The position numbers and the translations under genes are program-made. This document shows, one piece after another, positions 19,573 through 37,875 of a DNA stretch of 64,000 bases (position 1 is the stretch's first letter; each line of letters starts with the position of its first letter). The DNA is from Thermodesulfobacteriota bacterium. Lineage in GTDB: Bacteria; Desulfobacterota_D; UBA1144; Nemesobacterales; Nemesobacteraceae. The notes under the pieces are model-generated. The model was given only the letters and a program-made list of their open reading frames with translations, made no database searches and was not told the DNA's origin. Where the stretch lies: contig OZ242379.1 in the NCBI GenBank assembly GCA_965209225.1, positions 1,421,289-1,485,288 on the forward strand, written 5' to 3'.

Positions 19573-19648
19573 TCCGGCGTAGCTCAGTTGGCAGAGCAGA
19601 TGACTGTTAATCATCGGGTCGCAGGTTCGAGCCCTGCCGCCGGAGCCA
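19573..19648 (+). tRNA. tRNA-Asn (GTT)
   Basis: Cloverleaf with a 7-bp acceptor stem TCCGGCG/CGCCGGA, anticodon loop CTGTTAA, T-arm GCAGGTTCGAGCCCTGC and an encoded CCA. Confidence 0.9.
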
Positions 19649-19658
19649 AATTCCATCC

Positions 19659-20852: not shown

Positions 20853-20860
20853 TCTAGGCT

Positions 20861-20901
20861 ATTTCAAATTCTTTTTTTGAAATAGCCTAGATCCTGCTTC
20901 A
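20861..20901. promoter_or_regulatory. Perfect 16-bp inverted repeat (ATCTAGGCTATTTCAA-n9-TTGAAATAGCCTAGAT)
   Basis: It lies between the stop of the 115-aa ORF and the start of the ATPase ORF. It could be a terminator-like hairpin or an operator palindrome. Confidence 0.5.
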
Positions 20902-20909
20902 GGAGTTCT

Positions 20910-21257
20910 CTAGATCAGATAGTAAATCAACATGAAGAGGTACCGCATGTTCGGGCTTGACTTGTGAGTCTCGAGCCTTGCCGAGAGATCCCCTATGCCG
21001 CCGAAGAATGAGTCATTATAGACTTCTGCTACTCTTTTAAACTCATCGAACTTGATAAGCGGCGGTTCGCGAACGGCAAGCGGCCGCACGTTTTTCTCGG
21101 CGGAAGTTATCCTGATTCCGTCACCTTCTGTAGTGGCCAAGAACCATCGCTGGGAGTCTTCGAGCATAAGCTCTATTCCGCCTTCGGTTTTCTGTCTAAG
21201 AATTTCCCACTCTTCTTCCTTGGATTCGCTGAAAGGTATTTTTCTGTCTGCAAGCAT
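20910..21257 (-). CDS. Hypothetical protein
   Basis: 115-aa ORF with no recognisable motifs. Confidence 0.35.
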   Translation of the reverse strand: MLADRKIPFSESKEEEWEILRQKTEGGIELMLEDSQRWFLATTEGDGIRITSAEKNVRPLAVREPPLIKFDEFKRVAEVYNDSFFGGIGDLSARLETHKSSPNMRYLFMLIYYLI

Positions 21258-21325
21258 TTTTTCTCTCCGACAAGATTATTTTTAAGGTTCTATTCTACCC
21301 CATGTCGAAAAAATATATAATCCGG

Positions 21326-24073
21326 CTAACCGAGAAGCGGTCTCAGGTGCTCTCCGGTATAAGAGTTTTCTACCGAAGCAACCTGTTCCGGAGTACCGGA
21401 GGCCACTATGCGTCCCCCGTTATCTCCTCCCTCAGGTCCGAGGTCAACTACATAATCCGCGCATTTTATCATCTCAAGGTTGTGCTCTATGACTATTACG
21501 CTGTTGCCGGCGTCGACAAGCCTGTTAAGAACGTCGAGGAGTTTTCCTATGTCGTCGATGTGAAGTCCGACCGTGGGTTCGTCAAGGATGTAGAGGATGT
21601 TGTTTTTTTCTTTTTTTGAGAGTTCCCGGGCTATCTTTATCCTCTGGGCCTCTCCTCCCGACAGTGTTGTTGCGGGCTGTCCGAGCTTCAGATAACCGCA
21701 TCCGACATCCTTTAGAACCTTGAGCTTTCTGGTAACGGCCAGGTTTCCCGAGAAAAACCCCATGGCCTGATCGACGGTGAGGTTAAGTATGTCGTCTATG
21801 TTTTTCCCCTTGTACCTGTAGGCCAGTACATCTTTTCCAAACCTTTTTCCTCCGCATTCCTCGCACGTCACCATGACGTCGGCGAGAAAGTGCATCTCGA
21901 CCCTGTGACTTCCCTCACCCATACATTTCTCGCAGCGGCCTCCCCTCACGTTGAAGGAAAAATGCGATGGGGTAAGCTTGCGGAGTTTTGCCTGGTAGTG
22001 CCCGGCGAGGATTTTGCGTATGTCGTCGTAAACCTTTATGTAAGTGACGGGATTTGATCTCGAGGTTCTTCCTATGCTCGCCTGATCAAGAATTATCACG
22101 TCGTCTATATACTCTGTGCCTTCTATACGTTCGTGTTTTCCGACCTTTTCGGCTTTCCTCCTGAATTTCCTTAGAAGAGCGTTATGCAGGATGTCGTTTA
22201 CAAGCGAGCTTTTCCCCGAACCCGATACCCCGGTTACGCACGAGAGGGTTCCAAGGGGAAAACGGACGTTTATGTTCTTGAGGTTATTTTCGCTCGCGCC
22301 GATTACGTTTATTGAATTGCCGGTGGTTTCTCTGCGGGAACCGGGAACTTCTATTTTCTTTTCGTTTGCGAGGTATTTTTTCGTGGTCGAGTTCTTCGCC
22401 GAACGCAGGAAACTCTTCAGGGTTCCCTGGTACACGACCTCCCCCCCGCCGTCTCCCGCCCGGGGACCGAGTTCCACTATGTAGTCTGCGGATTTTACGG
22501 TGTCAAGATCATGCTCTATGAGTATGATGGTGTTGTTTCTTCCCCGGAGTTCTCTTATCAGCGAATTGAGGCGGCTCATGTCTCTTGCGTGCAGACCGAT
22601 CGAGGGCTCGTCCAGAATATACAGAGTCTCGGTAAGCCGCGAACTCATCTGGCAGGCGAGGTTTATCCTCTGCGCTTCTCCACCCGAGAGAGTACGGGTG
22701 AGCCTCGAGAGGGTCAGGTAATCAAGTCCCACGTGGATAAGAAAATCAAGCCGTGAGTCTATTTCCTTTATTATGTCGGAGGCGATCTCCAGTTCATAAG
22801 CGGACAGGGTCAAGCGGTCAAACCAGGACTTCAGATCCTTTACGGACATCTGAGAAAGTTGGAATATGCTTTCCCCCTCTATCCGCACATTAAGGGCTTT
22901 TTCCTTGAGCCTGCTCCCCCCGCAGTCCTCGCAGGTAAACGCGGAGCGGTATCTCGAGAGAAAAACCCTTATGTGGGTTTTGTAATTTTTCCGCTCAAGT
23001 CTTTTGAAATACCCTTTCACGCCGTAGTAGTACTCGTCTCCGTTTAAGACGAGATCTTTTTCCCTTGCCGAAAGTTCCGAGAAGGGTCTCTGCGTATCTA
23101 TTCCCGCCTCCTCGGCGGAGGCAAGCAACTTTCTCATCTGTTTTCTGTAGGAAGTTTTCGTGAAGGGTTCTATTGCCCCTTCGGCGAGGCTGAGACCGGT
23201 GTCCGGAACAAGGAGTTCGGGATCGATTTCAAGGTTTTTTCCGAATCCGCTGCATCGTTCGCAGGCACCGTAGGGACTGTTAAAGGAAAACGTGTTCGGC
23301 GTGGGTTTTTCAAACGCGATGTCGCAGAGATCACAGCGAAGTTCTTTTGAGAAACGCAGGCTCTGCCCTGGGACGATGTGTACAAGCGCGCGGCTGCTCT
23401 CGGAAAAAGCGGCCTCGAGCGCTTCTGTAATTCTCGATTTCGACCGCTTTTCTATAACGGTTCTCGCGGTGACTAGCTGGGTCTTTGCGTCCGGATCCTC
23501 CGAGCTTTTTTCCATATCCCGGGTCTTTCCGTTCCGGTAGGTACGTGAGTAGCCTTTTTTCATATATTGTGAAAGATCCGCTCCCTCTTCGGTCTCAAAG
23601 CAGATGACGGCTCTTTCCCCCGGGAATTTTTCGAGCAGCAGCCGGGCGAGGGACTGTGGAGAGTGTTCCATCACTTCCTCTCCGCATTCCGGGCAGCGGG
23701 TTTTTCCGATTTTCGCGAACAGAAGTCTTGTGTAGTCGTATATTTCGGTTGTGGTGCCTACTGTGGAACGGGAATTTATGACGTTGTTTCGGCTTTCGAT
23801 AGCTATCGGGGTCGGGAGACCTTCTATGTCGTCCATCGCGGGGCGCTCGACTTTTTCTATAAACTGTCTCGCGTAGGTTGAAAGGCAGTCGATGTACCTT
23901 CTGAGCCCTTCCTTGTAAACGGTGTCAAGCACGAGAGATGACTTGCCCGAACCGCTGAGACCGGTCACCACCGTGAACCTGTTTTGAGGGATCAGGACAT
24001 CTATGTTTTTCAGGTTGTTTTCCCTGGCGCCTTTTATCTCTATGTATCTGTTTCGTCCAGCGGTCTTCGACAT
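21326..24073 (-). CDS. uvrA: Excinuclease ABC subunit A
   Basis: Two ABC ATPase modules with zinc-finger insertions, starting MSKTAGRNRYIEIKGARENNLKNI. The ORF-track N-terminal extension to 24112 reads through a C11 tract and is probably not translated. Confidence 0.88.
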   Translation of the reverse strand: MSKTAGRNRYIEIKGARENNLKNIDVLIPQNRFTVVTGLSGSGKSSLVLDTVYKEGLRRYIDCLSTYARQFIEKVERPAMDDIEGLPTPIAIESRNNVINSRSTVGTTTEIYDYTRLLFAKIGKTRCPECGEEVMEHSPQSLARLLLEKFPGERAVICFETEEGADLSQYMKKGYSRTYRNGKTRDMEKSSEDPDAKTQLVTARTVIEKRSKSRITEALEAAFSESSRALVHIVPGQSLRFSKELRCDLCDIAFEKPTPNTFSFNSPYGACERCSGFGKNLEIDPELLVPDTGLSLAEGAIEPFTKTSYRKQMRKLLASAEEAGIDTQRPFSELSAREKDLVLNGDEYYYGVKGYFKRLERKNYKTHIRVFLSRYRSAFTCEDCGGSRLKEKALNVRIEGESIFQLSQMSVKDLKSWFDRLTLSAYELEIASDIIKEIDSRLDFLIHVGLDYLTLSRLTRTLSGGEAQRINLACQMSSRLTETLYILDEPSIGLHARDMSRLNSLIRELRGRNNTIILIEHDLDTVKSADYIVELGPRAGDGGGEVVYQGTLKSFLRSAKNSTTKKYLANEKKIEVPGSRRETTGNSINVIGASENNLKNINVRFPLGTLSCVTGVSGSGKSSLVNDILHNALLRKFRRKAEKVGKHERIEGTEYIDDVIILDQASIGRTSRSNPVTYIKVYDDIRKILAGHYQAKLRKLTPSHFSFNVRGGRCEKCMGEGSHRVEMHFLADVMVTCEECGGKRFGKDVLAYRYKGKNIDDILNLTVDQAMGFFSGNLAVTRKLKVLKDVGCGYLKLGQPATTLSGGEAQRIKIARELSKKEKNNILYILDEPTVGLHIDDIGKLLDVLNRLVDAGNSVIVIEHNLEMIKCADYVVDLGPEGGDNGGRIVASGTPEQVASVENSYTGEHLRPLLG

Positions 24074-24187
24074 GCGATTTCCCCGCCCCGGCTTATCCGC
24101 CCCCCCCCCCACGGGATTTCCCCTTTTCCCCGCGCGGCATTTGTAACGAAATTGAGGTTTGCCGAGGTTGCACTATAATAAATATGT

Positions 24188-24420
24188 CACTAGTGTCTTG
24201 ATGTTAATCAAACAATCTCAGTTGGTTACGATACACTGATTCGGGAGAGAAATCCACTGGTTTTGTAAGTAGTTCATTTAACGGCATTTTTTCAAACAGA
24301 TTGACGCTTAGAATCTGCAAAATTGTGTAGAGGCTAACCTCAAGATTAAGCCGCTTTCTGATCATGACGACAAGTACATACACTGACACCGTACGACGAT
24401 CCTATACTAAATAGAGGCAG
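24188..24420 (-). mobile_element. Truncated right-end fragment of the IS4-family element (partial copy of 13454-14784)
   Basis: 24188-24210 is the reverse complement of the IS4 right end (cactagtgtcttgatgttaatca). The 61-aa ORF at 24204-24389 is homologous to the transposase C-terminus. Confidence 0.65.
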
Positions 24421-24446
24421 TAATTTTATTTAAAGCCTGTGGTGAG

Positions 24447-25418
24447 TTAAAAAAGATCACTGGCTTTTTCCCATGATTGCTGGTATAACAGTAATCATGA
24501 ACAAATCACCTGAACAACTCATTTCCCCCAAGCTCCGCTTGCGGGACGTCATTGTAAGACCAGCCAGTCCCGATGAATTCCCCTAGTGGGACAGGCTCAT
24601 GAACGAACATCACTATCTCGGCTTCAAAAAATTTGTAGGCAACCACATTCGTTACGTAGCCGAGCATAAAGGAACCTGGCTCGCTATCGCCGGATGGCAT
24701 ACAGCCGCCTTCATGTGCGCCCCCCGAGACCGATGGATAGGGTGGAACCGGGACTGCCAGTTCAAAAACCTCCACCTTATAGCGAATAACACGCGGTTTC
24801 TGGTGCTGGCCCAACAAGGGGGTATCCCCAACCTGGCCTCTTTTTTCATGGGAGCCATGACAAGACGCATAAGCGATGACTGGACGGAACGCTTCGGACA
24901 TGAACTGCTCCTTGCCGAGAGCTTCGTAGACCCCGGGCGCTTTTGTGGAGCTATGTACAAAGCGTCTAACTGGATATGCGCGGGCGCTACCAGGGGATTC
25001 CCGCAGCAACGGACGTTACAGCAAGCATAACGGGAATCCGAAGAAGCTCTATCTTTATGAGCTGCGCAAAAAATCAAGAAAGATGCTTCGCAATGCCGAC
25101 ACGCTGGGAGAGCGCTACAGCGCGAAAGGGATGCGCACCCGCCGCTCCGACAAGGAGTTGAGGTCTCTTTATGAGGAGCTTGAGTGTGTGGGGGATTTCC
25201 GCAGAGCTCAGGCATTTTACGCTCAACAGGGAAGAGGCTTTCGAGGCTGTGCTCTCGGGTTAGGGCTATCCCAAGTTCGTCAGTTGTTGTGCAAATGAGT
25301 CTCTGGTTGGCCATAAAAGGTACGTAATTCCAGCCCAAATCCCGTTTTTTGCTACCGTACGGGATGATTTTGACTGATTTTCAGTCATGAAAGGGTTTGT
25401 TGTTGGGAATTCAGGCTA
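24447..25418 (+). mobile_element. IS-like element remnant encoding a frameshifted DUF4338-like protein
   Basis: The left part duplicates, inverted, window positions 1-123. The right end is ttgttgttgggaattcaggcta. The ORFs at 24599-25030 and 24945-25298 are in different frames. Confidence 0.55.
24599..25298 (+). pseudogene. Frameshifted DUF4338-like gene
   Basis: The N-terminal 143-aa ORF and the 117-aa continuation ORF are offset by one frame and overlap at 24945-25030. Confidence 0.45.
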
Positions 25419-25895
25419 GGGGGGGGGGGATATCGGACTTTATGGCGGAGATAACGGTGGCCAACTGGCGCATGGGTTCGGGGAGGTCGTCGAGGTTTTC
25501 CTTGAGCGTGGGGAACAGTTCCTGTTGCAAACAAGCGTGGAACCTGTATAATGCAGGAGTGCGTGGGACATGGTGTTTCTCCTTCCATATTATGGATTTT
25601 GGATAACCTGTAGTATGCCGTGAAGGAGGCACCATGTCTTTATTTTGCCCCTTCATTTCAAAGAAATTCACTCGCCTTAAGAATTTTGCAAGAGGTTCTA
25701 TAGTAAATAAAATCTGACAGATTCAAGCAAAAAAGAACCTTTCTTATGTATCTAACCTACTTTCCGCACAAAAAATATTCTTGTTTTCCCGATTTTTTGC
25801 TCTGTAACTGACTCATATTCCTGACAGTTTTTTTACGCCTTTCTACCCTTTTTTTCTCTCAACTCCTTTTTGCCAGGAATTTTCCGTACAAAACC

Positions 25896-26273
25896 CTATT
25901 TCAACCAGTCTTTCTTCTCGGTCGAACTGCTTATTACCTCCGCCTCAAGCTCGTCAATTTCCGCCTGAATCGCTTTCTGAACTGCCCTGAGCTGCTGGCG
26001 GTACTTGCGGAACCTTCTTCTGTTCTCCGTCATGCTTTTAACCCACTGCACTTCTCCCTTCGCAACAGCTCTGGACTTTGAACTGGAACCCTGGAAAAAA
26101 ACTATACGATCCAACGGATGACCATCCCCCCTCGCACACCAGCAGTTGGGCTTCCCGCACTTGCGATAAACAGTGCTGAACGAACCCCTGATCATCCCTC
26201 TGATTCCGACAATGGAGTTCAGCAGTTCAGCGTGTCTTAGTCCCAGCTGTTCAATCTGTTTTATTCTTGACAT
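25896..26273 (-). CDS. Small zinc-ribbon (CGKPNCWC) hypothetical protein, divergent from the IS1634 transposase
   Basis: 125-aa basic protein with a CxxC pair. Its position suggests it is an IS accessory gene. Confidence 0.35.
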   Translation of the reverse strand: MSRIKQIEQLGLRHAELLNSIVGIRGMIRGSFSTVYRKCGKPNCWCARGDGHPLDRIVFFQGSSSKSRAVAKGEVQWVKSMTENRRRFRKYRQQLRAVQKAIQAEIDELEAEVISSSTEKKDWLK

Positions 26274-26306
26274 CTGTACTTGGTATAGTATATATAATGT
26301 ACAGAT

Positions 26307-27986
26307 ATGTCAACCACTCTCAAACGAACGCGTATCGGTGAAATCCCCCTGCTTCAGCATGTGGTTCGACGACTCGGGCTAGACCGCCTGCTGCGCTCTT
26401 ACATTCCGCCCCACGGCAATGAAACCTATCCAGCGGCCGACACTCTTTTGCTTCTGGTGTTCAACATCGCAAGCGGTCGCTGGCCCCTGTATGATCTCCG
26501 ACGCTGGACCACGGACATTGACGGTCGGTTACTGGGACGTAAAAGCGCTTTGCCCGAGGAGGTGTTTAACGATGATCGTTACGCAAGGGCTCTTGACAAG
26601 CTCTTTTCTGTTGACAGGGCCTCTTTTCTTACAGACTGCACGCTTGGAGTGGTTCGCTCAACGGGTCTTGAACTCTCACAGCTTCACAATGATTCCACCA
26701 CGGTTAAAACAACGGGGAAGATGCCGCAGAGAACCCGAAGTGGTCTTTCCTTTGAATACGGACACAGCAAGGACCATCGTCCTGATCTCAGGCAGATAGT
26801 GTTCTCCCTCACGATTTCCGCGGACGGGGCAGTGCCTGTTCACTGCAAGACCTGGCCCGGCAACCGCACGGACGACACCACTCACATTGAGACCTGGACA
26901 GTCCTGCGCGACATGGCGGGGAGAAGTGATTTTCTGTATGTGGCTGACTGCAAGCTGTGCACGGAGAAGCAGCTTTCATTCATAGTGGGCAACGGGGGCA
27001 GGTGCGTGACGATAATTCCGAAGACACGGGGAGAGGTGAAGAAGTTCAAAGAATCCATGAGGGAGAATCCCAGGGGCAAGGAACGTATTATGCGCAGGCC
27101 TGTGTCTGGTCGGGATGGGAGTTTCGAGACTTTCTACAGGATCAGGGGAAGTTATGAGACAGACAAGGGTGGTTACGGGGTTCACTGGATATATTCAACG
27201 GAGAAGAGAAGACAGGACAGCGAACAGAGGGAGCGGCGGATGGATGAGGCTTCCCTGGCTCTTGCTGACATAAGCGGTCGGTTAAACAAGCGCAGGCTCA
27301 AGACGAAAGAGCAGATTCAGGAAAGGGTAGAGAAGATACTGAAGAAACATGATGTCAAGGCTTTTTACGACGTTACGATAGAGCAGTACGAAGAGGTTAC
27401 GCGGAAGCAGAGAGGAAGAGGACGTCCTGGGAGGGGGACAGCGTACAGGGAGGAATCAAAGACGGTGTATTCGCTTAGCTGGAGGAGGGACAGGGAAGCT
27501 CTTGAGAGGGAGAAGAATGTTGACGGCTTGTTTCCGTTGCTGTGTACGGACAGAGAGATGGGGGCGAAGGAGGCTCTTTTGGCGTACAAGTATCAGCCGA
27601 GGCTTGAGAAGAGGTTTGAGCAGTTAAAGAGCGTGCATCTTGCGGCTCCCACATTGTTCAAGAAGACAAGCAGGGTGGAGGCCGTGATGTTTCTGTTTTT
27701 CATGGCTTTGATAATACAGGCGGTAATAGAGAGGGAGGTGCGCAACTCCATGAAGGCCAGGGAGATAGACGCCATAGCGGTTTATCCTGAGCATCGTCTT
27801 GCGTATCATCCTACGACTGCGAAGATAATTGAACGGTTCCATGACACGAGCGTGTATCGTGTTATGCGAGGGGATGAGGTTGAGACGGAGTACCGCGACG
27901 ATCTCTCAGCTGTTCAGAAGGAAGTGCTTGAGCTGCTGGGGATGACGGAACAGGACTACTGGGACAGTCTTGTTCCTCAGCAGTAG
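26307..27986 (+). CDS. IS1634-family DDE transposase
   Basis: 559 aa with a DUF4277-like N-terminus and the HSKDHRPDL motif characteristic of IS1634/IS1549. Confidence 0.75.
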   Translation: MSTTLKRTRIGEIPLLQHVVRRLGLDRLLRSYIPPHGNETYPAADTLLLLVFNIASGRWPLYDLRRWTTDIDGRLLGRKSALPEEVFNDDRYARALDKLFSVDRASFLTDCTLGVVRSTGLELSQLHNDSTTVKTTGKMPQRTRSGLSFEYGHSKDHRPDLRQIVFSLTISADGAVPVHCKTWPGNRTDDTTHIETWTVLRDMAGRSDFLYVADCKLCTEKQLSFIVGNGGRCVTIIPKTRGEVKKFKESMRENPRGKERIMRRPVSGRDGSFETFYRIRGSYETDKGGYGVHWIYSTEKRRQDSEQRERRMDEASLALADISGRLNKRRLKTKEQIQERVEKILKKHDVKAFYDVTIEQYEEVTRKQRGRGRPGRGTAYREESKTVYSLSWRRDREALEREKNVDGLFPLLCTDREMGAKEALLAYKYQPRLEKRFEQLKSVHLAAPTLFKKTSRVEAVMFLFFMALIIQAVIEREVRNSMKAREIDAIAVYPEHRLAYHPTTAKIIERFHDTSVYRVMRGDEVETEYRDDLSAVQKEVLELLGMTEQDYWDSLVPQQ

Positions 27987-28187
27987 GAATGATGATTCCG
28001 GAATGCGGAAATTCGGAAAAACAAGGAATTTTTTTCCGCGGAAAATAGGATCTAAGTTATTTCATTAGGGGATTTTGTTGTATACTAGTCAAGGCTGGAA
28101 AAACGGAATAAATGTTTCCTTTGACCAAAATGAAGAGGTGTGGCGTTCCTTACATGTCCAAGAACTCTTGTTCTGGTCGGATTTATT

Positions 28188-29471
28188 ATGAGCAGGCGTC
28201 ATGAGACAGGACTTCATCGCAAGAATGAATATCCTATAGTCTATCTGGACTATGCTGCCACAACTCCTGCTGACCAATCCGTCATTGATATCATAATCCA
28301 ACATCTGGGATTTGAAGGTGTCTTTGGCAATCCTTCTTCGCAATCTCATCAATTCGGAAGAATGGCAGAAGAAGCAGTGGAAATAGCAAGATCTCACTTA
28401 GCTAAGTTGATCAACGCAGACCCTGTAGAGATTGTTTGGACATCTGGAGCAACAGAATCCATTAATTTAGCCATAAAAGGGGTGGTTTACGGACGTTCTG
28501 GCCGAGGTGCCCATATTGTAACTTCAAGCCTTGAGCACAAAGCGGTTCTTGATTCTTGTGCTTATTTGGCCAGTAAAAGGTTCGAAATCACCTATGTCGC
28601 CCCGGATCAGCATGGGATAATTTCACCAGAAAAAGTCGGTGAAGCACTTAGAGATGATACCGTCCTTGTATCCCTTATGCATGTGAACAACGAGGTAGGT
28701 ACCATCACGGATATTGACGCAATAGGTCAAATTACAAGGGATAGAGGGGTCCCATTCCATGTAGACGCAGCACAAAGTTCTGCGCGATTACCCATTGATG
28801 TAAGCGAGATACCAGTGGATTTTATTTCGCTTAGCGGTCATAAGATGTACGGTCCCAAGGGTGTCGGAGCACTATATATCAGAAAGCGATCAGGTATAAG
28901 CATAGAACCTCAAACGCACGGCGGTGGGCAGGAGTCTGGCATACGTCCAGGAACTCTCCCCACACACCAATTGGTCGGCATGGGAGAAGCGGCTCGATTG
29001 GCAAAACAACGTCTATACCAAGATGCAAAAACTATTGCTGCCCTTGATAGATATTTGTTGGATAGCTTAGCGGATATTGAGTCGGCTATATTGAACGGCA
29101 ATCAGACACACAGGGTGCCTGGGATTTTCAACATAAGCTTCGCTCATGTCGAAAACGAATCTCTTATGATGTCTCTTAAAGATGTTGCAATCTCATCCGG
29201 GTCGGCTTGTACTTCATCTCGTGTTGAGCCCTCCCATGTCTTGCTAGGGCTGGGAGTGTCAGAAGATGCTGCAAATTGCTCGATTCGCTTCAGTATTGGC
29301 AGACAAACCACTAGGGATGAAATTGATTTTGCCGCAATGCGTGTGAAGAAATCCGTTGAGTTGCTGCGTGAATTATCGCCTGAATGGCGGTCTCCTAATT
29401 CCGAGGAGCAACTTCAGAACGACAATAAAGCTAGGTCGAACATTACTGTAACACAGGAAAATGCCGTATGA
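28188..29471 (+). CDS. Cysteine desulfurase (class V aminotransferase; IscS/NifS/DndA/SspA-like)
   Basis: YLDYAATTP start, a PLP-lysine SGHKMYGPKG and an SGSACTS active-site Cys loop. The stop overlaps the next gene's start (ATGA). Confidence 0.8.
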   Translation: MSRRHETGLHRKNEYPIVYLDYAATTPADQSVIDIIIQHLGFEGVFGNPSSQSHQFGRMAEEAVEIARSHLAKLINADPVEIVWTSGATESINLAIKGVVYGRSGRGAHIVTSSLEHKAVLDSCAYLASKRFEITYVAPDQHGIISPEKVGEALRDDTVLVSLMHVNNEVGTITDIDAIGQITRDRGVPFHVDAAQSSARLPIDVSEIPVDFISLSGHKMYGPKGVGALYIRKRSGISIEPQTHGGGQESGIRPGTLPTHQLVGMGEAARLAKQRLYQDAKTIAALDRYLLDSLADIESAILNGNQTHRVPGIFNISFAHVENESLMMSLKDVAISSGSACTSSRVEPSHVLLGLGVSEDAANCSIRFSIGRQTTRDEIDFAAMRVKKSVELLRELSPEWRSPNSEEQLQNDNKARSNITVTQENAV

Positions 29472-30673
29472 ATAAGGAGACTGTACTAGCAAAAGTTGTC
29501 TCATTTGACAGTGATGAAAACATTGTCCGAGCAGTTAAATGCTTCAATACCGCCATTGATGTTATACGGAAAGAATATATGCGCAGGCATAATGACCCGT
29601 GGGTTGTGGCATATTCTGGCGGAAAAGACTCAACACTGTTACTGCAAATGACTTGGGAAGTGCTGGCATCACTACCAAGTTCAGCAAGGCACCGTAAAGT
29701 CTATGTAGTTGGTAACGACACTCTTGTGGAGTCGCCCTTAGTCATTCGCCATATGCGAAGCTCAATGAAAAAAATTGCCGAAGCAGCAACAGCTAGTAAT
29801 TTGCCGATAGAAACAGAGATTACTACACCTAACGTTGATCAGACATTCTGGGTCAATGTTATTGGACGTGGTTACATTCCGCCCACGCGCAACTTCCGCT
29901 GGTGTACCGACCGCATGAAAATCATTCCCACAAATCGGTTGCTGGAAAGGTTAACTCGCTCTCACAAGCGTGCCGTGTTATTGGTAGGAACGCGAAAGAG
30001 CGAGTCCACAAATCGTCGGCGCAACATGAAGAAACACGGAGCTTCGGGAACAACCATGAACCGCCACAGCAGCATACCTGCATGTCGTATGTTTTCCCCA
30101 ATCGCTGAATTTAAAGACGAGGATGTATGGATCACTCTGATACAACGAAAACCTCCTTGGGGAGGTACGCATCGGGACTTGATTACGCTTTATCGCAATG
30201 CTGGGGGAGGGGAATGTCCTCTGGTGCTGACAAAGGAAGATGCTCCTTCCTGCGGGACAACATCTCCAAGATTCGGCTGCTGGACATGCACTGTTGTAAA
30301 CAAAGACCGCAGCCTTCGGGGATTGATTGATTCAGGCCATGATGACACTGATTTTTTTGAGGCTCTTTACGACTTTCGCGAATGGCTCGTGGAAATGCGC
30401 GAGAACAACTCGAACCGGCAGAGTGTTAGGCGAAATGGAATATCCAAGACGCGTGCTGACGGAACTGTTGTACTGGGACCGTTCACCCTTGACGTACGTA
30501 AGTTGATTCTCGACCGGTTAAAGGAGCTTGAGCAAAGTATCGGGGAGCATCTAATCACAGAATCTGAGCTTGATATAATCCATGATATCTGGCGCAGGGA
30601 CCGAGTGGTCCAGTCATGTCGAGACGAGTTGCACGAAGCGGTTTCTTCCCATATGGAGGAGGAACTTGCATGA
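29468..30673 (+). CDS. PAPS-reductase-family PP-loop ATP pyrophosphatase, DndC/SspD-like
   Basis: SGGKDS PP-loop, an FRWCTDRMKI motif, and a C-terminal Cys cluster (CPLV...SCG...FGCWTCT) consistent with an Fe-S site. Confidence 0.7.
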   Translation: MNKETVLAKVVSFDSDENIVRAVKCFNTAIDVIRKEYMRRHNDPWVVAYSGGKDSTLLLQMTWEVLASLPSSARHRKVYVVGNDTLVESPLVIRHMRSSMKKIAEAATASNLPIETEITTPNVDQTFWVNVIGRGYIPPTRNFRWCTDRMKIIPTNRLLERLTRSHKRAVLLVGTRKSESTNRRRNMKKHGASGTTMNRHSSIPACRMFSPIAEFKDEDVWITLIQRKPPWGGTHRDLITLYRNAGGGECPLVLTKEDAPSCGTTSPRFGCWTCTVVNKDRSLRGLIDSGHDDTDFFEALYDFREWLVEMRENNSNRQSVRRNGISKTRADGTVVLGPFTLDVRKLILDRLKELEQSIGEHLITESELDIIHDIWRRDRVVQSCRDELHEAVSSHMEEELA

Positions 30674-32451
30674 CTACTCGGAAAGCATTGATTAAAGCGG
30701 ACTCTCTGCTGTTTTCAAACCTGCTCAGGGAAGGCAAGTTCTCGGTTCCATGGCATCAGCGTTATTACGACTGGAACCCAGGGCACGTTCAGGAACTCCT
30801 TTTTGATATTGAAGAAGCTCTAAAGGAAAAACGGGACTGTTATTTTCTGGGAACCGTGATTTTTGTGGAGAAAGAACCTGAACACTGGGAGATCAACGAC
30901 GGACAGCAGCGCATGATAACGTTTTCACTGATCTGTGCGTCGCTTTGCCGCAGGTTTGCGCACGAGACATCGGATTCTCAGCGCGAAGGAAGGGCGTTAC
31001 GCATTCTATTTGACTTGGATGAAAACACTCCATGTTCACTGGCCGCCGCTCGAAACTATACTCCTCGAATTTCCCCGCAGGAAGATGATGCAGTCTGGTA
31101 CCGGCAGATGATTCAGGGAAACGATATTGGAACTAACGGCACTATCACGGCCGCATGGAAAATTCTCGATGAATTTATCCTGTCGCAAAGCACTGAAGAA
31201 TCCGAGAAATATTTTGATTTCCTCGTCCGAAAGCTTGAAATAGCTCGTCTGCGGGTGCCAACGCAAGTTGACCCAAACGCCGTGTACGAGACTATCAACT
31301 GCAGGGGTAAAATACTTGATGACCTAGATCTAATCCGAAACCACATCTACTCGCATTTTAATAGTGAAGAAAATCATGAAAGAAAAAAGTCAGTGCATGC
31401 GCATCTGGAAAGAATTCGCACTAGGTTGTCTGCCAGGAGAACCTCTGAATATATGCGGTGTCACCTGCAATGTGTGTTTGGATTTCTTCGCAGGGACAGC
31501 TTCTATCGCGATGTACGTAAAGCAATCCGCAATCAAGCACAAGGGAAAAAAAGAAGCCAGGAAGACTATGTGCTTGAACTCGCGGAAAAAGTTGCCGACC
31601 CTAAAAGTCTGTGCCTCTTCTCAGAAGTGATAGTTTCATCCAATCCCGACCCTAAAACCATTCAGGCGTTTAATACTGACTCCGGAAAGGGAAATTTGCG
31701 CAGGAATCTTTCCGTCTTCCTGTGGGAACTGCGCGGATACACGGTAACTCAGCCATTAGTGTTCGCTTTGTTGACGGTTTATTTGCGCGAAACGGACGGT
31801 CGGCGAAGAAAACGGATTGCCAAAAAAGTGCATGAAAATTTGAGTCGGTTGGCAGCATTTGTTCTCAGAACTGCTTTTGTCGCCCCGAAGTTCGAGCCTT
31901 CTCATTTCGAAGCTAGATTCTCCGAGTTTGCGAAAAAAATAATGCAGGACGAGAAAATTCCCGATAAAGAATTTGCTGAGTTTCTGCTGGACTGCGACCG
32001 CGATTACTACAAAGTACTGGATGATTCTAAGTTTGAGGAAGAACTTTATGAAGCACAGATGACGGGTGACAAAAAGATAAAACGATTTCTTTTCGGCATT
32101 AACAGCGATCAGCAGACAGGTTCTCAGGTTTTTAATGACAGTGAATTTTCAGTAGAACACATACTTCCAAAATCAGATAGGCATTGGGACAACTGGAAAG
32201 GTTTCGGGGAAGAGGACCCGAAGGAATGGGTCAGCAGAATCGGAAACCTGACGCTTCTGGGAAGAACCGACAACAAACCGGGGACAAAGTTCAACGGAAG
32301 CTTTAAAAAGAAGAAAGAAATCTATGCGGAAAGTGCTCTGGTAATCACCAGCCAACTGTCTCAGTGGAACGACTGGACTCCTCAAAATATTAAAAAAAGG
32401 CAACGGTACATGGCTAGCCGTGCCGTTGAGGTCTGGAGGTTTATACGATAA
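30670..32451 (+). CDS. DUF262 (DGQQR, ParB/Srx-like NTPase) + DUF1524 (His-Me finger) protein, SspE/GmrSD-like
   Basis: The N-terminus carries a DGQQR motif. The C-terminus carries an EHILPKS...N...N HNH-like motif. The start overlaps the upstream stop (ATGA). Confidence 0.7.
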   Translation: MTTRKALIKADSLLFSNLLREGKFSVPWHQRYYDWNPGHVQELLFDIEEALKEKRDCYFLGTVIFVEKEPEHWEINDGQQRMITFSLICASLCRRFAHETSDSQREGRALRILFDLDENTPCSLAAARNYTPRISPQEDDAVWYRQMIQGNDIGTNGTITAAWKILDEFILSQSTEESEKYFDFLVRKLEIARLRVPTQVDPNAVYETINCRGKILDDLDLIRNHIYSHFNSEENHERKKSVHAHLERIRTRLSARRTSEYMRCHLQCVFGFLRRDSFYRDVRKAIRNQAQGKKRSQEDYVLELAEKVADPKSLCLFSEVIVSSNPDPKTIQAFNTDSGKGNLRRNLSVFLWELRGYTVTQPLVFALLTVYLRETDGRRRKRIAKKVHENLSRLAAFVLRTAFVAPKFEPSHFEARFSEFAKKIMQDEKIPDKEFAEFLLDCDRDYYKVLDDSKFEEELYEAQMTGDKKIKRFLFGINSDQQTGSQVFNDSEFSVEHILPKSDRHWDNWKGFGEEDPKEWVSRIGNLTLLGRTDNKPGTKFNGSFKKKKEIYAESALVITSQLSQWNDWTPQNIKKRQRYMASRAVEVWRFIR

Positions 32452-32468: not shown

Positions 32469-33851
32469 TTGCGCCGCCTTGCGGAGGAAAAGCTTCGTGT
32501 TCCCGCACTTTTGCACGATTACCAGTGGGAGGGAGTGGCTTTCTTATATCAGTCGCCTTCGGGACTTCTTGCAGATGAAATGGGGCTCGGAAAAACGGTG
32601 CAGACTGCAGTCGCCTTGGGACTGCTTATGCACGCGCAAAACGATGTCAATCGCACAATAATAGTGGCACCCGCTTCCCTGACAACCAACTGGATAGAAG
32701 AACTGGAAAAATGGGCACCGTCGCTTACGGTACGGAGAGTGCAAGGCGACGCACGAAACAGGGAAGCTTTTTACCTGCTTCCGATTCCTGTTATCGTGGC
32801 CTCCTACGAGCAGATCCGCCTTGACGGGTTGGATAGAATTCCCTCAAACGCTTTCGACCTCGTCATACTTGATGAAGCTCAGCGGATTAAGAACAAGGCA
32901 TCTACCACTTCCTTGGCGTGCAGACTTCTCCCAAGAAAGCGCGCATGGGCCTTGTCCGCCACGCCCCTTGAGAACGACGAGGCCGATATTGAATCAATAC
33001 TCGGGTTCCTCGACCCATCATTCGGACAATCTCCTCCTAGATTGGTCTTGAACAAGAAGTTGAGATCAATGATGCTGCGTAGAAAGAAATCCGACGTTCG
33101 AGGGGAACTCCCTCCGGTAATCATACAAGATATTAAAATCGACTTATCATTACAGCAAAGAAACAAATATGAAGATATCTGGTTTAGCAGGACCAATGCT
33201 ATCGGTGACGGCACATCTTCCGGAAATGTTGTCTCTGTATTACTCGGACTTATTACCCGCCTGAAAACTGTGTGCAATTTTGACGAATCAACAGATACCT
33301 CGTCAAAGTGGGATGTTCTCCGGGATCTACTCGATCAGGCCGGGAATTCAGCCCGCATTCTGGTGTTCTCGCAGTTCGTCGAAACCTTGCGCTGGATTTC
33401 CAAACGCCTGGAAATTCCACACAGTCTCCTGACGGGTTCAATGCCCTTGACTCGGAGGCAGAAATCCATAAACGAATTCAAAAGAAATCCGGCTCCTCGC
33501 GTACTGCTGGTTTCGCTTCGTGCGGGCGGAGTGGGATTGAATCTCGGAGAGGCTACCCATGTAGTTCTTTTTGACAGATGGTGGAATCCCGCTGTGGAAG
33601 TTCAGGCGATCTTCCGGGCTCATCGTTTTGAACGCAATGATCCGTTGCATGTTATCAGATTCCTGGCCACCGACACCATTGAGGACCGGATAGCGGAAAT
33701 ACTTGATCGGAAAGAGGACTTGTTTGATGAAGTAATAGAGTCCGTTGAAACCAAGTCTCGCAGTTTTTCACTGCAGGAAATGATGCGCATACTTGAACTC
33801 ACAGAAAATGATCTCTTTTCGGCTAGGGAAGGAAAAAGAACAAAATCGTAA
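32469..33851 (+). CDS. Minimal SNF2-family DNA-dependent ATPase
   Basis: GLGKT Walker A, DEAQ box, LSATPLEN, and a helicase-C domain with RAGGVGLNL and FDRWWNP. There are no accessory domains. Confidence 0.75.
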   Translation: MRRLAEEKLRVPALLHDYQWEGVAFLYQSPSGLLADEMGLGKTVQTAVALGLLMHAQNDVNRTIIVAPASLTTNWIEELEKWAPSLTVRRVQGDARNREAFYLLPIPVIVASYEQIRLDGLDRIPSNAFDLVILDEAQRIKNKASTTSLACRLLPRKRAWALSATPLENDEADIESILGFLDPSFGQSPPRLVLNKKLRSMMLRRKKSDVRGELPPVIIQDIKIDLSLQQRNKYEDIWFSRTNAIGDGTSSGNVVSVLLGLITRLKTVCNFDESTDTSSKWDVLRDLLDQAGNSARILVFSQFVETLRWISKRLEIPHSLLTGSMPLTRRQKSINEFKRNPAPRVLLVSLRAGGVGLNLGEATHVVLFDRWWNPAVEVQAIFRAHRFERNDPLHVIRFLATDTIEDRIAEILDRKEDLFDEVIESVETKSRSFSLQEMMRILELTENDLFSAREGKRTKS

Positions 33852-33962: not shown

Positions 33963-34790
33963 ATGCCAAAAATAATTGAATATAGAGAACTGCCTCTAGA
34001 TGATCTCGTGATAGGAAAGGGACAGGTTCGAACGTTTGAACCAGGGAAGGACATTGAAGAGCTAGCTAACAGTATCAGGGTGCAGGGGCTGTTGCAACCG
34101 ATAGTTGTGTGCGAATCGAAAGAACGACCCGAAAAATGGGAAATCCTTACGGGGCAGAGGCGTTATCTAGCACACAAGCACCTTAAAGAGCAAAGCATAA
34201 CGGCTGCGATCCTAGATGGACATGTTGATGAGCGTACGGCCAAGGCGATTTCTATTACCGAAAACCTGATTCGCCGCAAGCTTTCAGGCTCAGAACTTAT
34301 TGACGGAGTAACGTACTTGTACAACATGTACGGAACGCAAAAAGCTGTTGTTGAAGCTACAGGTCTTCCTGCGTCGGCCGTTCGGGACTACGTGAAATAC
34401 CCTCGGCTTATAGATCCCCTGAAGAAACTTGTTGATGATGGCACCGTTGATATTCATGGAGCTTTAAAAGCTCAGGACGCATCCATTAATGAAGATGGAA
34501 AACCGGACCCGGAAACCGCGGTAAAATTGGCTAAGGAAATGGTTCCCATGTCCGGCATTCAGCGCAAAAAGGTTGTTCAAGCGCGCAAAAAGGATCCCGA
34601 AAAACCAATTGATGACGTGATTGAGGATGCGAAAGGAGCATCCAAGGCAACTCAGGTTGTCGCGACGATTACGCAGAAAACACACACTGCTCTGCAGAAA
34701 TTCGCTAATAACGAAGGAATAAACCAAGATGAAGCCGCTGCTACGCTCATAGAACGTGCTTTGACCAGCGAAGGGCTTCTGGACGAATAA
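33963..34790 (+). CDS. ParB/Srx-domain nuclease-like protein
   Basis: ParB N-domain with a GQRRYLA box and a following HTH-like region. Confidence 0.65.
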   Translation: MPKIIEYRELPLDDLVIGKGQVRTFEPGKDIEELANSIRVQGLLQPIVVCESKERPEKWEILTGQRRYLAHKHLKEQSITAAILDGHVDERTAKAISITENLIRRKLSGSELIDGVTYLYNMYGTQKAVVEATGLPASAVRDYVKYPRLIDPLKKLVDDGTVDIHGALKAQDASINEDGKPDPETAVKLAKEMVPMSGIQRKKVVQARKKDPEKPIDDVIEDAKGASKATQVVATITQKTHTALQKFANNEGINQDEAAATLIERALTSEGLLDE

Positions 34791-35513
34791 ATGCTAGCTG
34801 ATCTCAGTGCTCTCGAGCTCGGGCGTCTCCGAATGTCGGTAGGATACGGTACTCATAAAAAAGGGCGGCCGCTCTCACCAGTTGAAGTCGGAAAATTGAT
34901 TCGCCAAGCTAAAGAAGCGGGCATTTCAACGGAGGATTGCGCCAAAGCAATTAATCTTGACAAAACAAGTATCGGTCGCTTCCTGCGAATTCTTGATCTG
35001 CCTGAAGACGTTCAGCATCTGGTTTCTTGGGGTGCCCAGAAGGATTCTATTGGCTTTTCGGTGGCCGCCCAGTTGGCAAGGTTTGAAGATACAGAAGATC
35101 AGCATGCTGTTATTGAGACAATTTTAACTGATGGGCTTAGCAGGAAAGAAATTGAGCAGGTCTTACAACTCAAGAGTCGATCCGGCAGGAAAATTGACGA
35201 GTGCTTGAAAGAAGTTCTGGGAATGCGTCCTGTGATTGAGAAAAGGCATGTATTCATCGGGATGATAGATGACCAGGATTTGGATGTGACGCTTTCGGGT
35301 CTGACACAAGCACAAAGGGACTCAATACTGCAATCCAGCATCCAAGCACTTGGCTTAGCTGAGGTGTCTGGCCGACTTGGAAAAAACATCCTCACTTTGG
35401 TCGGTTCTCATAGCCTCGGGACATATATCAAAAACATTGGGGCAGACAACCTTGAGGCACAGCTTATAGCCCAGATTCAAAAAGGTATCAACAATGAACG
35501 ACTCCGCGATTGA
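34791..35513 (+). CDS. ParB-like HTH-domain protein lacking the N-terminal catalytic box
   Basis: A ParB HTH-like region (LSPVEVGKLIRQAKEAGISTEDCAKAINLDKTSIGRFLRI) is present. The gene starts 1 nt after the upstream stop. Confidence 0.5.
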   Translation: MLADLSALELGRLRMSVGYGTHKKGRPLSPVEVGKLIRQAKEAGISTEDCAKAINLDKTSIGRFLRILDLPEDVQHLVSWGAQKDSIGFSVAAQLARFEDTEDQHAVIETILTDGLSRKEIEQVLQLKSRSGRKIDECLKEVLGMRPVIEKRHVFIGMIDDQDLDVTLSGLTQAQRDSILQSSIQALGLAEVSGRLGKNILTLVGSHSLGTYIKNIGADNLEAQLIAQIQKGINNERLRD

Positions 35514-36528
35514 TGTTTTCGAGAGCGGGGCTGTCCGTCTGGGCACAAATGTGGTTTGTGACGGTTTCGTGGAAGGATATGACTTCCGTGTCCAGACACA
35601 TGTTCACGATGATCACATGGGGGACTTTGATACAAGTAAAGGCAGACAGGATTTCTTCATGAGCGTGGAGACGTTTAGTCTTCTCAACGCTTTTCTCAAT
35701 GCAGAAATCCCCTACCGATCTAACTTTCACAAAATTCTGCGCGGGGCTGAGTACGAACTTCGTGATGGTTCAAAGCTGACTCTTCTTCCGTCGAACCATA
35801 TGCTCGGTTCATGTCAAGTATCCTTGCAGTTGCTAAATGGCCGACGAGTAGGTTATTCGGGGGATTTCGGCTGGCCTCTCGAAAAAATCATCCAGGTCGA
35901 TGAACTCGTGGTGGATAGCACCTACGGAAGTCCGAATAGCGTACGCGGCTATACACAAGCTGAGGCCGAGGAATGTCTTTTGGAGCTTGTATGCAAACGT
36001 TTGAGGTATGGTTCCGTTCATATCTACGCCCACCGAGGAACAGTTGAACGGGTTCTGCATATCATCGAAGGTAACGTGGGAGTCCCAATTCTTGCCAGTG
36101 ATCGACTTATTCAAGAAGTAGATGTTTATCAGAATTGCGGAATCGCACTGGGAGAAGTTGAGAGCCTTAGTTCAGATGAAGGAGTATCAGCATCCAAACG
36201 AAGGGCTTACGTTCGATTATATTCAAAAGGCGACGGTTTCGGAAACGAACCCATTACTGACACAAGTATCAAATGCAGTGCCTATATGGCCACACGTTTT
36301 GCGAGTAGTCCGTTAATAACCCTCAGTGACAACTCTTACAGCGTGGCATTATCAAATCATGCGGATTTTCGCGAGACGCTTGAATATGTTGAGGCAACGG
36401 GAGCTGAGATAGTAGTCACCGATAATACACGTAACCATGGCATTGAACTGGCCAACGCAATTAACGAGCGTTTATCCGGGATCAAGGCAAGACCATCAAC
36501 AAATAATCCCACACCTCGCTGGCGCTAA
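35494..36528 (+). CDS. Metallo-beta-lactamase-fold hydrolase (probable nuclease)
   Basis: HVHDDH (HxHxDH) motif, downstream His/Asp ligands (NHML, SNHADF) and a beta-CASP-like C-terminal half. Confidence 0.65.
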   Translation: MNDSAIDVFESGAVRLGTNVVCDGFVEGYDFRVQTHVHDDHMGDFDTSKGRQDFFMSVETFSLLNAFLNAEIPYRSNFHKILRGAEYELRDGSKLTLLPSNHMLGSCQVSLQLLNGRRVGYSGDFGWPLEKIIQVDELVVDSTYGSPNSVRGYTQAEAEECLLELVCKRLRYGSVHIYAHRGTVERVLHIIEGNVGVPILASDRLIQEVDVYQNCGIALGEVESLSSDEGVSASKRRAYVRLYSKGDGFGNEPITDTSIKCSAYMATRFASSPLITLSDNSYSVALSNHADFRETLEYVEATGAEIVVTDNTRNHGIELANAINERLSGIKARPSTNNPTPRWR

Positions 36529-36959: not shown

Positions 36960-37475
36960 ATGGAAAGCACTAAAACAGTACAAGTAATAGATACGTTTCA
37001 GAACAAGTCTTTTCCACTTTCTTTTTTACAAGAGAAGGTGGTGGGTAGCATTGACTTAGAAAGAAACTACATTTCACTTGACAGCTTGACGAGGAATTAC
37101 ACTGTACTTAAAGAACCTTCCTATTATGAGCCTCCCCGGAACACTTTTCCCGAAGAATATATTGAGTCTTCGTTTACTTTGCTTATGGAAAGCTGGTGCG
37201 AAGAAAAGAAATATATGTCTTTTCTGTCAGATATAGTTACGTGTCCTTCGTATCAAAAAATAATTGAGATGGGAGAATTAGCCCTTTCATTAATATTAGT
37301 TCAACTTAGAAAAGAAGGAGACGACCCAAACCACTGGTTTACCGCTCTTGAAGCTATAACAGGTCATAACCCAGTTCCAGAAAGCGCTTATGGAAATATG
37401 GTAAAGATGGCAGAAACATGGCTTTTCTGGGCCGAAAAAAATAATGTTTCCCGGCTTTCCGAATCTCAATTCTGA
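36960..37475 (+). CDS. Hypothetical protein (possible immunity/partner protein)
   Basis: 171 aa; overlaps the downstream ORF by 32 nt. Confidence 0.35.
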   Translation: MESTKTVQVIDTFQNKSFPLSFLQEKVVGSIDLERNYISLDSLTRNYTVLKEPSYYEPPRNTFPEEYIESSFTLLMESWCEEKKYMSFLSDIVTCPSYQKIIEMGELALSLILVQLRKEGDDPNHWFTALEAITGHNPVPESAYGNMVKMAETWLFWAEKNNVSRLSESQF

Positions 37476-37875
37476 AAATTGTCGCATAACTAGTCCACCA
37501 ACTAATCGCTACAACTGTATAGCTTGGGCGGCTGGTTGTAGTACCAAGTGGTGGTGCCCTTATGGCTATTGGCCTTCCGGAGTTCCCAGAAAAATAACTC
37601 TGTCTGCACTTTCAGAAGTATTTAGAACTCTTGGATACGAAGAATGCGAAGATGGTTTCTTAGAATCTGGATATGAAAAAGTGGCATTGTTCGCTAGTTC
37701 TAATGCTGATAAAGACCTGTTACCTACACACGCTGCAAGACAACTAAGGAATGGGTGGTGGACAAGCAAATTCGGAGATGATATTGAGCATAGGAATCCA
37801 GAAGACCTGAATGGTTCAGCATATGGAACTGTAATTTGTTTTATGCGACGTGCAAAAGAAGGTGGCTTGAAATAA
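37444..37875 (+). CDS. Hypothetical protein with a papain-like Cys...His arrangement (YNCIAWAAG ... PTHAARQ)
   Basis: 143 aa. The Cys/His spacing is reminiscent of NlpC/CHAP-type or other thiol hydrolases. Speculative. Confidence 0.3.
   Translation: MFPGFPNLNSENCRITSPPTNRYNCIAWAAGCSTKWWCPYGYWPSGVPRKITLSALSEVFRTLGYEECEDGFLESGYEKVALFASSNADKDLLPTHAARQLRNGWWTSKFGDDIEHRNPEDLNGSAYGTVICFMRRAKEGGLK

Follow-up and report, generated by a model that had tools for sequence, protein, structure and literature searches.

Phosphorothioate (PT) modification of DNA is known from four established systems, Dnd, Ssp, Tdp and BREX type 4, in each of which a PAPS-reductase-like writer is paired with a different ATPase and DNA-binding partner. 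Here we analyse a cassette of seven co-oriented genes in a 64,000-nucleotide stretch of a Thermodesulfobacteriota genome (contig OZ242379.1, positions 1,421,289 to 1,485,288; hereafter the window, numbered from its first letter), in which a gene for a protein with DUF262 and DUF1524 domains follows the gene for a predicted DndC writer and precedes that for an SNF2 helicase. The cassette would represent a further solution to PT modification, namely a bona fide DndC without DndD and DndE and a DndI-like nuclease in the slot of DndD.

The closest relatives of the DUF262-DUF1524 protein are DndI and HEC-06. DndI of Salmonella enterica Cerro 87 (PDB 9JFL, 596 aa) carries the motif D83GQQR87 and senses PT via a hydrophobic patch that P23, Y25 and Q26 make up in the segment TPTYQR, the equivalent residue in SspE being Y30 (PMC11662687). 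HEC-06 (Hma-embedded candidate 06) is a validated antiphage nuclease for which both DGQQR (Q79, R80) and EHICP (E471, H472) are essential, and DGQQR has been described in the same work as conserved among GmrSD-like proteins (Payne et al., bioRxiv 2024). The motif is also present in SspE, the PT-sensing nucleoside triphosphatase (NTPase)/nickase of the Ssp system (PDB 6JIV/7DRS), and in DpdB of the 7-deazaguanine system Dpd.

We found no description of the seven-gene cassette in the literature, where it has been glimpsed in two papers and never analysed: Moeller et al. named genes of this type, and a 2026 paper on PT in BREX type 4 counts a dndC neighbourhood labelled 'DUF262' among the potential PT systems not yet described. 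The Aravind-lab reappraisal of PT systems, searched for SNF2, ParB, metallo-beta-lactamase (MBL) and GmrSD in a Dnd context, does not describe it (PMC10853773).

A DndI-like protein with intact catalytic motifs

The gene and the elements discussed below are the following.

30670..32451, + strand: DUF262-DUF1524 (GmrSD-like) gene for a predicted DndI-like NTPase/HNH nickase, 593 aa (Pfam, PADLOC, AlphaFold2/Foldseek)
30655..30673, + strand: coupling junction, with the Shine-Dalgarno sequence GGAGGAGG at 30655-30662 within the 3' end of dndC and the ATGA start/stop overlap at 30670-30673 (read from the sequence)
30748..30762, + strand: P27-W28-H29-Q30-R31, equivalent of the PT-sensing patch of DndI (P23/Y25/Q26) and SspE (Y30) (HMMER alignment to 9JFL and SspE)
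30898..30912, + strand: NTPase motif D77-G-Q-Q-R81 (translation; conserved in 178/178)
32155..32169, + strand: His-Me/HNH nuclease motif EHxxP, E496-H497-I-L-P500, followed by G525-N526 and N535 (translation)

A first-pass annotation, made from the letters of the window, had described the open reading frame (ORF) at 30670-32451 as a 593-aa DUF262 plus DUF1524 protein with a DGQQR motif and an ATGA overlap with the DndC gene, and all of this is confirmed. Its ATG follows the Shine-Dalgarno sequence by 7 nt and shares bases with the TGA that ends the DndC gene. An alternative in-frame start at 30616 gives a longer ORF; the 593-aa start is preferred because about 120 homologue clusters (590-600 aa) align from residue 1, and because a 96%-identical copy is also called at 593 aa, with the identical 4-bp overlap to the DndC gene. 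Both domains, on whose significant profile matches the annotation had made its assignment depend, are recognised by Pfam well above cutoff: GmrSD_N/DUF262 (PF03235) at residues 17-226 (E 2.3e-20, 74 bits, cutoff 33) and GmrSD_C/DUF1524 (PF07510) at residues 451-582 (E 3.1e-24, 86 bits, cutoff 23).

The catalytic motifs were followed through a family alignment of 178 members, to which the counts for DGQQR, EHxxP and PWHQR refer. DGQQR is found in all 178 and, by exhaustive search, in nearly all distant relatives, while in the nuclease motif E496 never varies and conservation of H497 and P500 reaches at least 90%. The description of the motif as 'DGQQR instead of DGQHR' is therefore backwards, since DGQQR is the canonical form in DUF262-DUF1524 nucleases (DndI, SspE, HEC-06, DpdB). 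DGQHR is the motif of DndB. About 13 related loci have a genuine DndB ('PLDGQHRL', Pfam DndB 104-115 bits) as well, its gene lying two positions downstream of that for the DGQQR protein; the two motifs coexist in these loci and thus mark paralogous families. The window protein has no match to Pfam DndB (PF14072).

As far as alignment can tell, the real divergence of the family at the level of motifs is the replacement of the PT-sensor Tyr by His. The window protein reads VPWHQR where DndI has TPTYQR (HMMER alignment); H29 is present in 176 and W28 in all 178 family members, P27, Q30 and R31 are invariant, and the decapeptide VPWHQRYYDW is identical in 169. In the exhaustive search, the signature PWHQR.YDW delimits a clade of representatives above about 260 bits, and more distant representatives grade into P.[YF]QR.Y[AS]W, as in DndI and SspE; a DndC-linked outgroup likewise has Tyr at the sensor position. 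That His29 takes the place of DndI Y25 in three dimensions is suggested by the same sequence alignment. Such a natural Tyr-to-His swap at the PT-sensing position offers a ready probe of sulfur recognition.

DndI is the best match of the window protein both in sequence and in fold, in agreement with its proposed homology to the DUF262-DUF1524 nucleases of PT systems. A sequence search of the PDB returns DndI (9JFL) at the top with a colinear alignment (E 6e-11), and SspE aligns at the HNH motif region only (E 3.5e-5). An AlphaFold2 model built from 60 homologues (predicted local distance difference test, pLDDT, 89.8; predicted template-modelling score, pTM, 0.83) matches DndI in Foldseek over its full length (E 5e-17, template-modelling score, TM, 0.63-0.64, both 9JFL chains). 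SspE follows at TM 0.44/0.35, and these two proteins are the sole significant structural neighbours. No BrxU or GmrSD chain is found among the Foldseek matches at E <= 1e-3 or in the PDB sequence search at E <= 1, which leaves the 'characterised GmrSD type IV restriction clade', raised as the alternative by the first-pass annotation, without a match.

Profile scores place the protein more closely. PADLOC ranks HEC-06 first (241 bits, 6e-72, full length), ahead of Orf5 (171 bits) and SspE (54 bits, N-terminal ~100 aa only). The PADLOC 'Orf5' model PDLC02701 corresponds to DndI, whose N-terminal half scores 511 bits on it; the window protein reaches 93 bits on this model, below orthologue level. 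Likewise, a genuine HEC-06 (P0400) obtains 479 bits on its own model as against 241 bits for the window protein. DndI itself also matches HEC-06 profiles, and the HEC-06 profile thus cannot separate PT-linked from PT-independent enzymes. From its scores on the models of DndI itself (93 bits) and HEC-06 (241 bits), we place the window protein as a sister subfamily within the DndI/HEC-06 group, apparently an orthologue of neither and farther from SspE. A 'divergent subfamily' had been proposed before: the family is indeed distinct, and the grounds then given, the H-to-Q change and the length, fail. At 593 aa the protein is short only against SspE (771 aa), not against DndI, with which it aligns colinearly from end to end.

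The likeness to DndI extends to the common layout of DUF262, helical linker and DUF1524, to DGQQR and an HNH-type motif, and to a genetic tie to a DndC-based PT writer. However, the two proteins have only 17-19% identity, and the dndI gene belongs to a dndFGHI operon beside dndBCDE, whereas the window gene stands between dndC and a downstream module; genes for DndB, DndD, DndE and DndFGH are found nowhere in the 64-kb window. HEC-06 gives the top profile score over the full length, and the two proteins have in common an embedding in a DNA-modification gene cluster and near-identical motif positions (Q79/R80 and E471/H472 in HEC-06, Q79-Q80/R81 and E496/H497 here). HEC-06 differs in being about 560 aa long, residing in helicase-methylase-ATPase systems and acting alone, while the window family is about 595 aa long, carries PWHQR.YDW and is obligately DndC-linked. 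SspE has DGQQR and EHxxP too, and differs in length and in forming a separate module adjoining sspABCD. SspE is not the closest relative of the protein, and the system contains no Ssp components: PADLOC detects no SspB (DUF4007), SspC or SspD-type gene in the window, and the PAPS-reductase gene scores 385 bits as DndC vs 24 bits as SspD. Finally, DpdB resembles the window protein in its ParB-like DGQQR NTPase domain, its SspE-like helical C-terminal domain and its coupling, by gene adjacency and in function, to a DNA-modifying enzyme, but it has neither EHxxP nor nuclease activity and its partner is a transglycosylase, not DndC. The window family thus has the DGQQR of a DpdB-like writer assistant, but it has retained EHxxP.

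Linkage to DndC and exchange of downstream modules

A scan of one genome per GTDB species yielded 65 loci, all in metagenome-assembled genomes (MAGs), from at least 10 phyla. When their flanks were compared by tblastn and all-against-all clustering, exactly seven conserved gene families emerged and nothing else. The invariant core consists of DndA, DndC and the DUF262-DUF1524 protein, the latter two each clustered in 61 of the 65 loci; in most loci the DndA gene stands upstream of that for DndC. The DUF262 gene lies directly after the DndC gene in 61/65 genome loci and in 4/4 close metagenome loci, an arrangement far beyond chance. Its position in mid-operon with a start/stop overlap, pointed out in the first-pass annotation, is thus a real and conserved trait of the family: the DndC-DUF262 junction is a -4 overlap in 44/62 loci, which is consistent with translational coupling, and the DndA and DndC genes overlap in 45/54. 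Between the DUF262 and SNF2 genes there is instead a gap of variable length (median +20 nt). Translational coupling therefore appears to tie the trio together, with the downstream module attached more loosely. The fixed stoichiometry of modification and sensing that the first-pass annotation proposed may follow from this coupling.

The same linkage was approached from the side of DndC, by a metagenome scan seeded with the window DndC that returned 80 loci. All four loci whose DndC is at least 60% identical have the DUF262 gene directly downstream (two V1, two V2; variants defined below), and the remaining 76, with DndCs of 45-52% identity, all have DndD there. No relative of the window DUF262 protein was found in these 76 DndD loci by tblastn at 1e-4, a search that a very divergent DndI-like gene could escape. 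The DUF262-DUF1524 gene therefore fills the DndD slot, and the window-type DndC forms a sequence clade (at least 58% identity) apart from the DndD-linked DndCs (45-52%). That the 401-aa DndC is a truncated form tied to the loss of DndD and DndE was considered and refuted, since DndD-linked DndCs end alike (median -4 residues). The cassette resembles a canonical DndABCDE operon in having DndA, in having a DndC above the NCBIfam equivalog cutoff and in the order DndA-DndC-X. It differs in that X is DUF262-DUF1524, not DndD; in that V1 and V2 loci lack both DndD and DndE, and V1 loci DndFGH also, with DndB in V2 only; and in the addition, in V1, of SNF2, two ParB-like proteins and a beta-CASP nuclease.

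Three kinds of module follow the trio. V1, found in 43 loci including the window, comprises SNF2, ParB, ParB with a helix-turn-helix (HTH) domain and beta-CASP; V2 (about 13 loci) has a GIY-YIG nuclease of about 110 aa and DndB; and V3 (two loci, L008:12137-17719 and L036) has a DndD/PbeC-like ABC ATPase, a DndE-FtsK fusion and an AriA/AriB-like pair. The V3 ABC ATPase and DndE-FtsK are closest to the second, CxC/Pbe-type pair of canonical dnd loci (31-36% and 45-49% identity), and the AriA/AriB-like pair is a PARIS-like ATPase-DUF4435 pair. When the DUF262 proteins are arranged in a neighbour-joining tree, the variants alternate and members of one phylum do not stay together; V2 is basal and V3 was acquired twice independently, so that modules must have been exchanged repeatedly and horizontal transfer must have been extensive. 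The 96%-identical copy, from a TARA metagenome, has the identical seven genes between different flanks (ppx, ppk, dnaE), and the cassette therefore moves as a unit. Rearranged loci are consistent with the downstream module being separable: L041 carries SNF2-ParB-ParB-MBL upstream of DndA in divergent orientation, in L040 the V1 module lies about 3 kb apart from the trio, and L038 has ParB-ParB-MBL with no SNF2 detected.

Of the Tyr-type relatives, those nearest to the DUF262 protein form an outgroup of about 10 clusters at 32-34% identity, which is linked to DndC as well, in the order PAPS-reductase, DUF262/1524, GIY-YIG, DndB. The DndC-DUF262 pairing is therefore older than the His-type clade, with V2 as the apparent ancestral variant. 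One outgroup locus (L149:7787-8993) has two ORFs of about 210 aa without Pfam match at the DndC position, next to an intact DUF262/1524 gene; the same sample yielded its sister L151, in which a DndC of 398 aa is intact. Either the long-read assembly has a frameshift error here, or the writer has become a pseudogene beside an intact nuclease; the second case would bear on nuclease toxicity without PT.

Possible roles of the DUF262-DUF1524 protein

We favour, at somewhat better than an even chance, a reading in which the DUF262-DUF1524 protein is a PT-reading NTPase/nickase effector coupled to a writer that is independent of DndD and DndE. DndA would mobilise sulfur and DndC, needing neither DndD nor DndE, would write PT into host DNA, for which the single DndC-like enzyme of Tdp is a precedent. 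The DUF262-DUF1524 protein would work like DndI and SspE, its ParB-like DGQQR NTPase domain interrogating DNA and its HNH-type EHxxP domain nicking DNA without the self mark. Downstream, the SNF2-ParB-ParB(HTH)-beta-CASP genes would constitute an exchangeable accessory module, either as a second translocase-nuclease effector arm or as an aid to DNA loading or targeting. Because the nuclease would be hazardous in the absence of its writer, the gene would be coupled to dndC and travel with it; DndI is toxic in PT-deficient cells (PMC11662687). The retained EHxxP argues against a purely modification-assisting role, since DpdB, which is needed for DpdA modification, has lost it. In this scheme a presumed self/non-self logic and presumed PT sensing by the DUF262 protein are set beside the observed architecture, intact catalytic motifs, structural kinship to DndI and SspE, linkage, conserved overlap and modular exchange.

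Several points weigh against this reading. That the mark is PT, as opposed to another sulfur modification, would follow from the equivalog-level similarity of DndC only. The gene sits in the exact DndD slot, and V1 and V2 do without DndD and DndE, which leaves room for a role in writing; in the Aravind-lab reappraisal, the pair of DndD/CxC and DndE is indispensable for Dnd modification (PMC10853773). Each exchangeable module brings a nuclease of its own (beta-CASP, GIY-YIG or AriB-like), and these could be the real effectors. Lastly, the Tyr of DndI Y25 and SspE Y30 is His in 176 of 178 members, and the sensing chemistry may differ because of this replacement.

The main rival explanation, possible though rather unlikely in our estimate, is that the DUF262 NTPase serves DndC as its NTP-driven partner in handling DNA, in place of DndD-DndE and as DpdB does for DpdA, perhaps with a dual read-write-cut function. 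The HNH domain would then nick for sulfur insertion or also restrict unmodified DNA, and the downstream modules would be the main restriction arms. DpdB, with its DGQQR ParB-like ATPase and SspE-like C-terminal domain, is a precedent, being required for DNA modification by DpdA, and further points speak for this explanation: downstream of DndC, DUF262/1524 (DndC at least 58% identical) and DndD (the 76 DndCs at 45-52%) are mutually exclusive, V2 and outgroup cassettes encode no other P-loop ATPase, the DUF262 gene is coupled most tightly to DndC and not to the downstream genes, every variable module has its own nuclease, and the PT-sensor Tyr is replaced. The precedent is nevertheless imperfect, as DpdB lost the EHxxP that the window family keeps (E496 invariant, H497 and P500 at least 90%). 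Every DUF262-DUF1524 protein that has been characterised and carries both motifs is a restriction effector, dispensable for modification. Moreover, modification by DndCDE in vitro reportedly bypasses nicking (PMC10853773), and in Tdp a single DndC-like enzyme, TdpC, can suffice for PT synthesis. We put forward, as a tentative extension of about the same likelihood, that the trio of DndA, DndC and DUF262-DUF1524 is a fifth, self-contained PT system in which one polypeptide both licenses writing by DndC and cuts unmarked DNA. If so, a DGQQR-NTPase/HNH polypeptide would stand in for DndD-DndE, SspB-SspC or BrxC-DUF4007, backbone modification would follow a 'type I/IIG-like' read-write-cut logic with a His-based sensor and plug-in nuclease modules, and the system would have spread horizontally via apparent sponge-symbiont communities of at least 10 phyla.

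Two further explanations are less likely still. The protein could be an independent, embedded restriction enzyme of the HEC-06/GmrSD type that works regardless of PT. Its top PADLOC profile is HEC-06 (241 bits, full length), HEC-06 defends alone and was discovered embedded in another modification system, and the Pfam domains bear the names GmrSD_N and GmrSD_C. Yet such embedding is sporadic, whereas the linkage to DndC is near-absolute over at least 10 phyla, extends to the outgroup and comes with a conserved 4-bp overlap; the profile score amounts to half the 479 bits of a bona fide HEC-06, DndI scores on HEC-06 profiles too, and no BrxU or GmrSD structure is significant. This makes a stand-alone enzyme quite improbable. 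Least probable of all, and already largely refuted, is the idea that the protein regulates PT modification in the manner of DndB, as a transcriptional or NTPase regulator. DndB does belong to the same ParB/DUF262 superfamily, and Moeller et al. named DUF262+DUF1524 genes beside dndA/C 'dndB-like'. The window protein, however, has no Pfam DndB match, has DGQQR in place of DGQHR and contains a conserved nuclease domain, and besides the DUF262 protein a genuine DndB (Pfam DndB 104-115 bits, DGQHR) is encoded in V2 loci and in the outgroup.

The cassette makes testable the minimal needs of DndC for DNA modification and the way in which ParB-like DGQQR NTPases have come to serve writing in one case (DpdB) and reading or cutting in others (SspE, DndI).

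The cassette in the window and its distribution

The other genes of the cassette and the left boundary of its surroundings are listed below.

28140..29471, + strand: DndA/IscS-like cysteine desulfurase, predicted sulfur donor (Aminotran_5 4.7e-82; PADLOC SspA, DndA ~1e-152; NCBIfam DndA 400 bits)
29468..30673, + strand: DndC, PP-loop ATP pyrophosphatase/sulfurtransferase, 401 aa, predicted PT writer (TIGR03183 349 bits, cutoff 290; PADLOC 1e-115)
32469..33851, + strand: SNF2-family helicase/translocase, core only, 460 aa (SNF2-rel_dom 1.7e-46 and Helicase_C; PADLOC DpdE-/ZorD-like)
33963..34790, + strand: ParB-like protein 1, ParB N-terminal NTP-binding domain with GQRR box (ParB_N 1e-14; TIGR00180 72 bits)
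34791..35513, + strand: ParB-like protein 2, HTH domain only, fast-evolving (HTH_ParB 1.7e-10)
35494..36528, + strand: metallo-beta-lactamase/beta-CASP-type nuclease (Lactamase_B_2; TIGR04122 1e-15)
19573..19648, + strand: tRNA-Asn, left edge of the variable region of about 18 kb that holds the cassette (ARAGORN)

The true start of the DndA-like gene is probably the ATG at 28188. In DndC, the PP-loop SGGKDS and Cys250, Cys262, Cys271 and Cys274 are invariant in 173 homologues; a PDB sequence search with this protein found nothing. The SNF2 gene occurs in 43/65 loci with its DEMGLGKT and DEAQ motifs invariant, ParB-like protein 1 in 39 loci with a conserved GQRR box, and the beta-CASP protein, whose PDB relatives are aCPSF1, FttA and SNM1A, in 43 loci with a conserved HxHxDH motif. 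A scan of 27.8-38.2 kb for promoters and terminators gave nothing above shuffled expectation and is uninformative on operon structure.

In the 35 V1 loci that are complete, identity to the window averages 67% for DndC, 65% for MBL, 64% for SNF2, 63% for ParB1, 61% for DndA, 53% for ParB2 and 51% for DUF262. The DUF262 gene is the least conserved in 20 of these loci and ParB2 in the other 15. The DUF262 protein is thus the fastest-evolving of the cassette, as expected for a component engaged in conflict with phages or setting specificity. An exact-sequence look-up showed that the window protein is not on record. It matches a single PHROGs family of unknown function, and a scan of viral contigs with the family alignment gave one weak partial match and no sign of phage carriage.

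Many of the 65 MAGs bear names that we take to be sponge-associated (Poriferihabitaceae and Porisulfidus; bins SB06xx, CAR, COS, RHO and PNGco; one 'Plut'). Taxa of cassette-bearing MAGs are also mentioned in sponge-genome data notes, and two close copies (L147 and L150) come from TARA metagenomes. The cassette is compact and mobile, and it is found mainly in apparent sponge-symbiont bacteria. Sponge metagenomes are enriched in DUF262 and DUF1524 domains and in 'incomplete' PT systems; the cassette may partly account for the former and may partly explain why PT genes in these metagenomes look 'not functionally complete'. The 'dndB-like' annotations in sponge-symbiont genomes can likewise be corrected.

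The variable region ends on the right at glyA (38047), where housekeeping genes resume, and an IS1634 transposase (26307-27986) adjoins the cassette. To the left, the region holds an AAA_14/DUF4143 ATPase (19659-20852, - strand; PADLOC candidate PDC-S01, 356 bits), a 928-aa UvrA-like double ABC ATPase that matches MADS mad3 (21326-24112, - strand) and a DUF6788 gene (25896-26273, - strand). The stretch 19573-27986, in which no integrase was seen, may be a defence island. Directly after the cassette, two overlapping small genes occupy a low-GC stretch (36960-37875, 42%): a 171-aa ORF of no known family (36960-37475) and a DUF7689 gene (37444-37875, 124 bits). Both were rejected as members of the cassette, being conserved in no related locus, and the pair may be an unrelated two-gene module. 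Farther out, a second DDE transposase of 604 aa (16432-18246) lies to the left of the tRNA. A 736-aa protein (49206-51416, - strand) with a PADLOC match to 'SspH' was rejected as a PT restriction gene, because its FtsK-like domain alone matches, and is probably the housekeeping FtsK.

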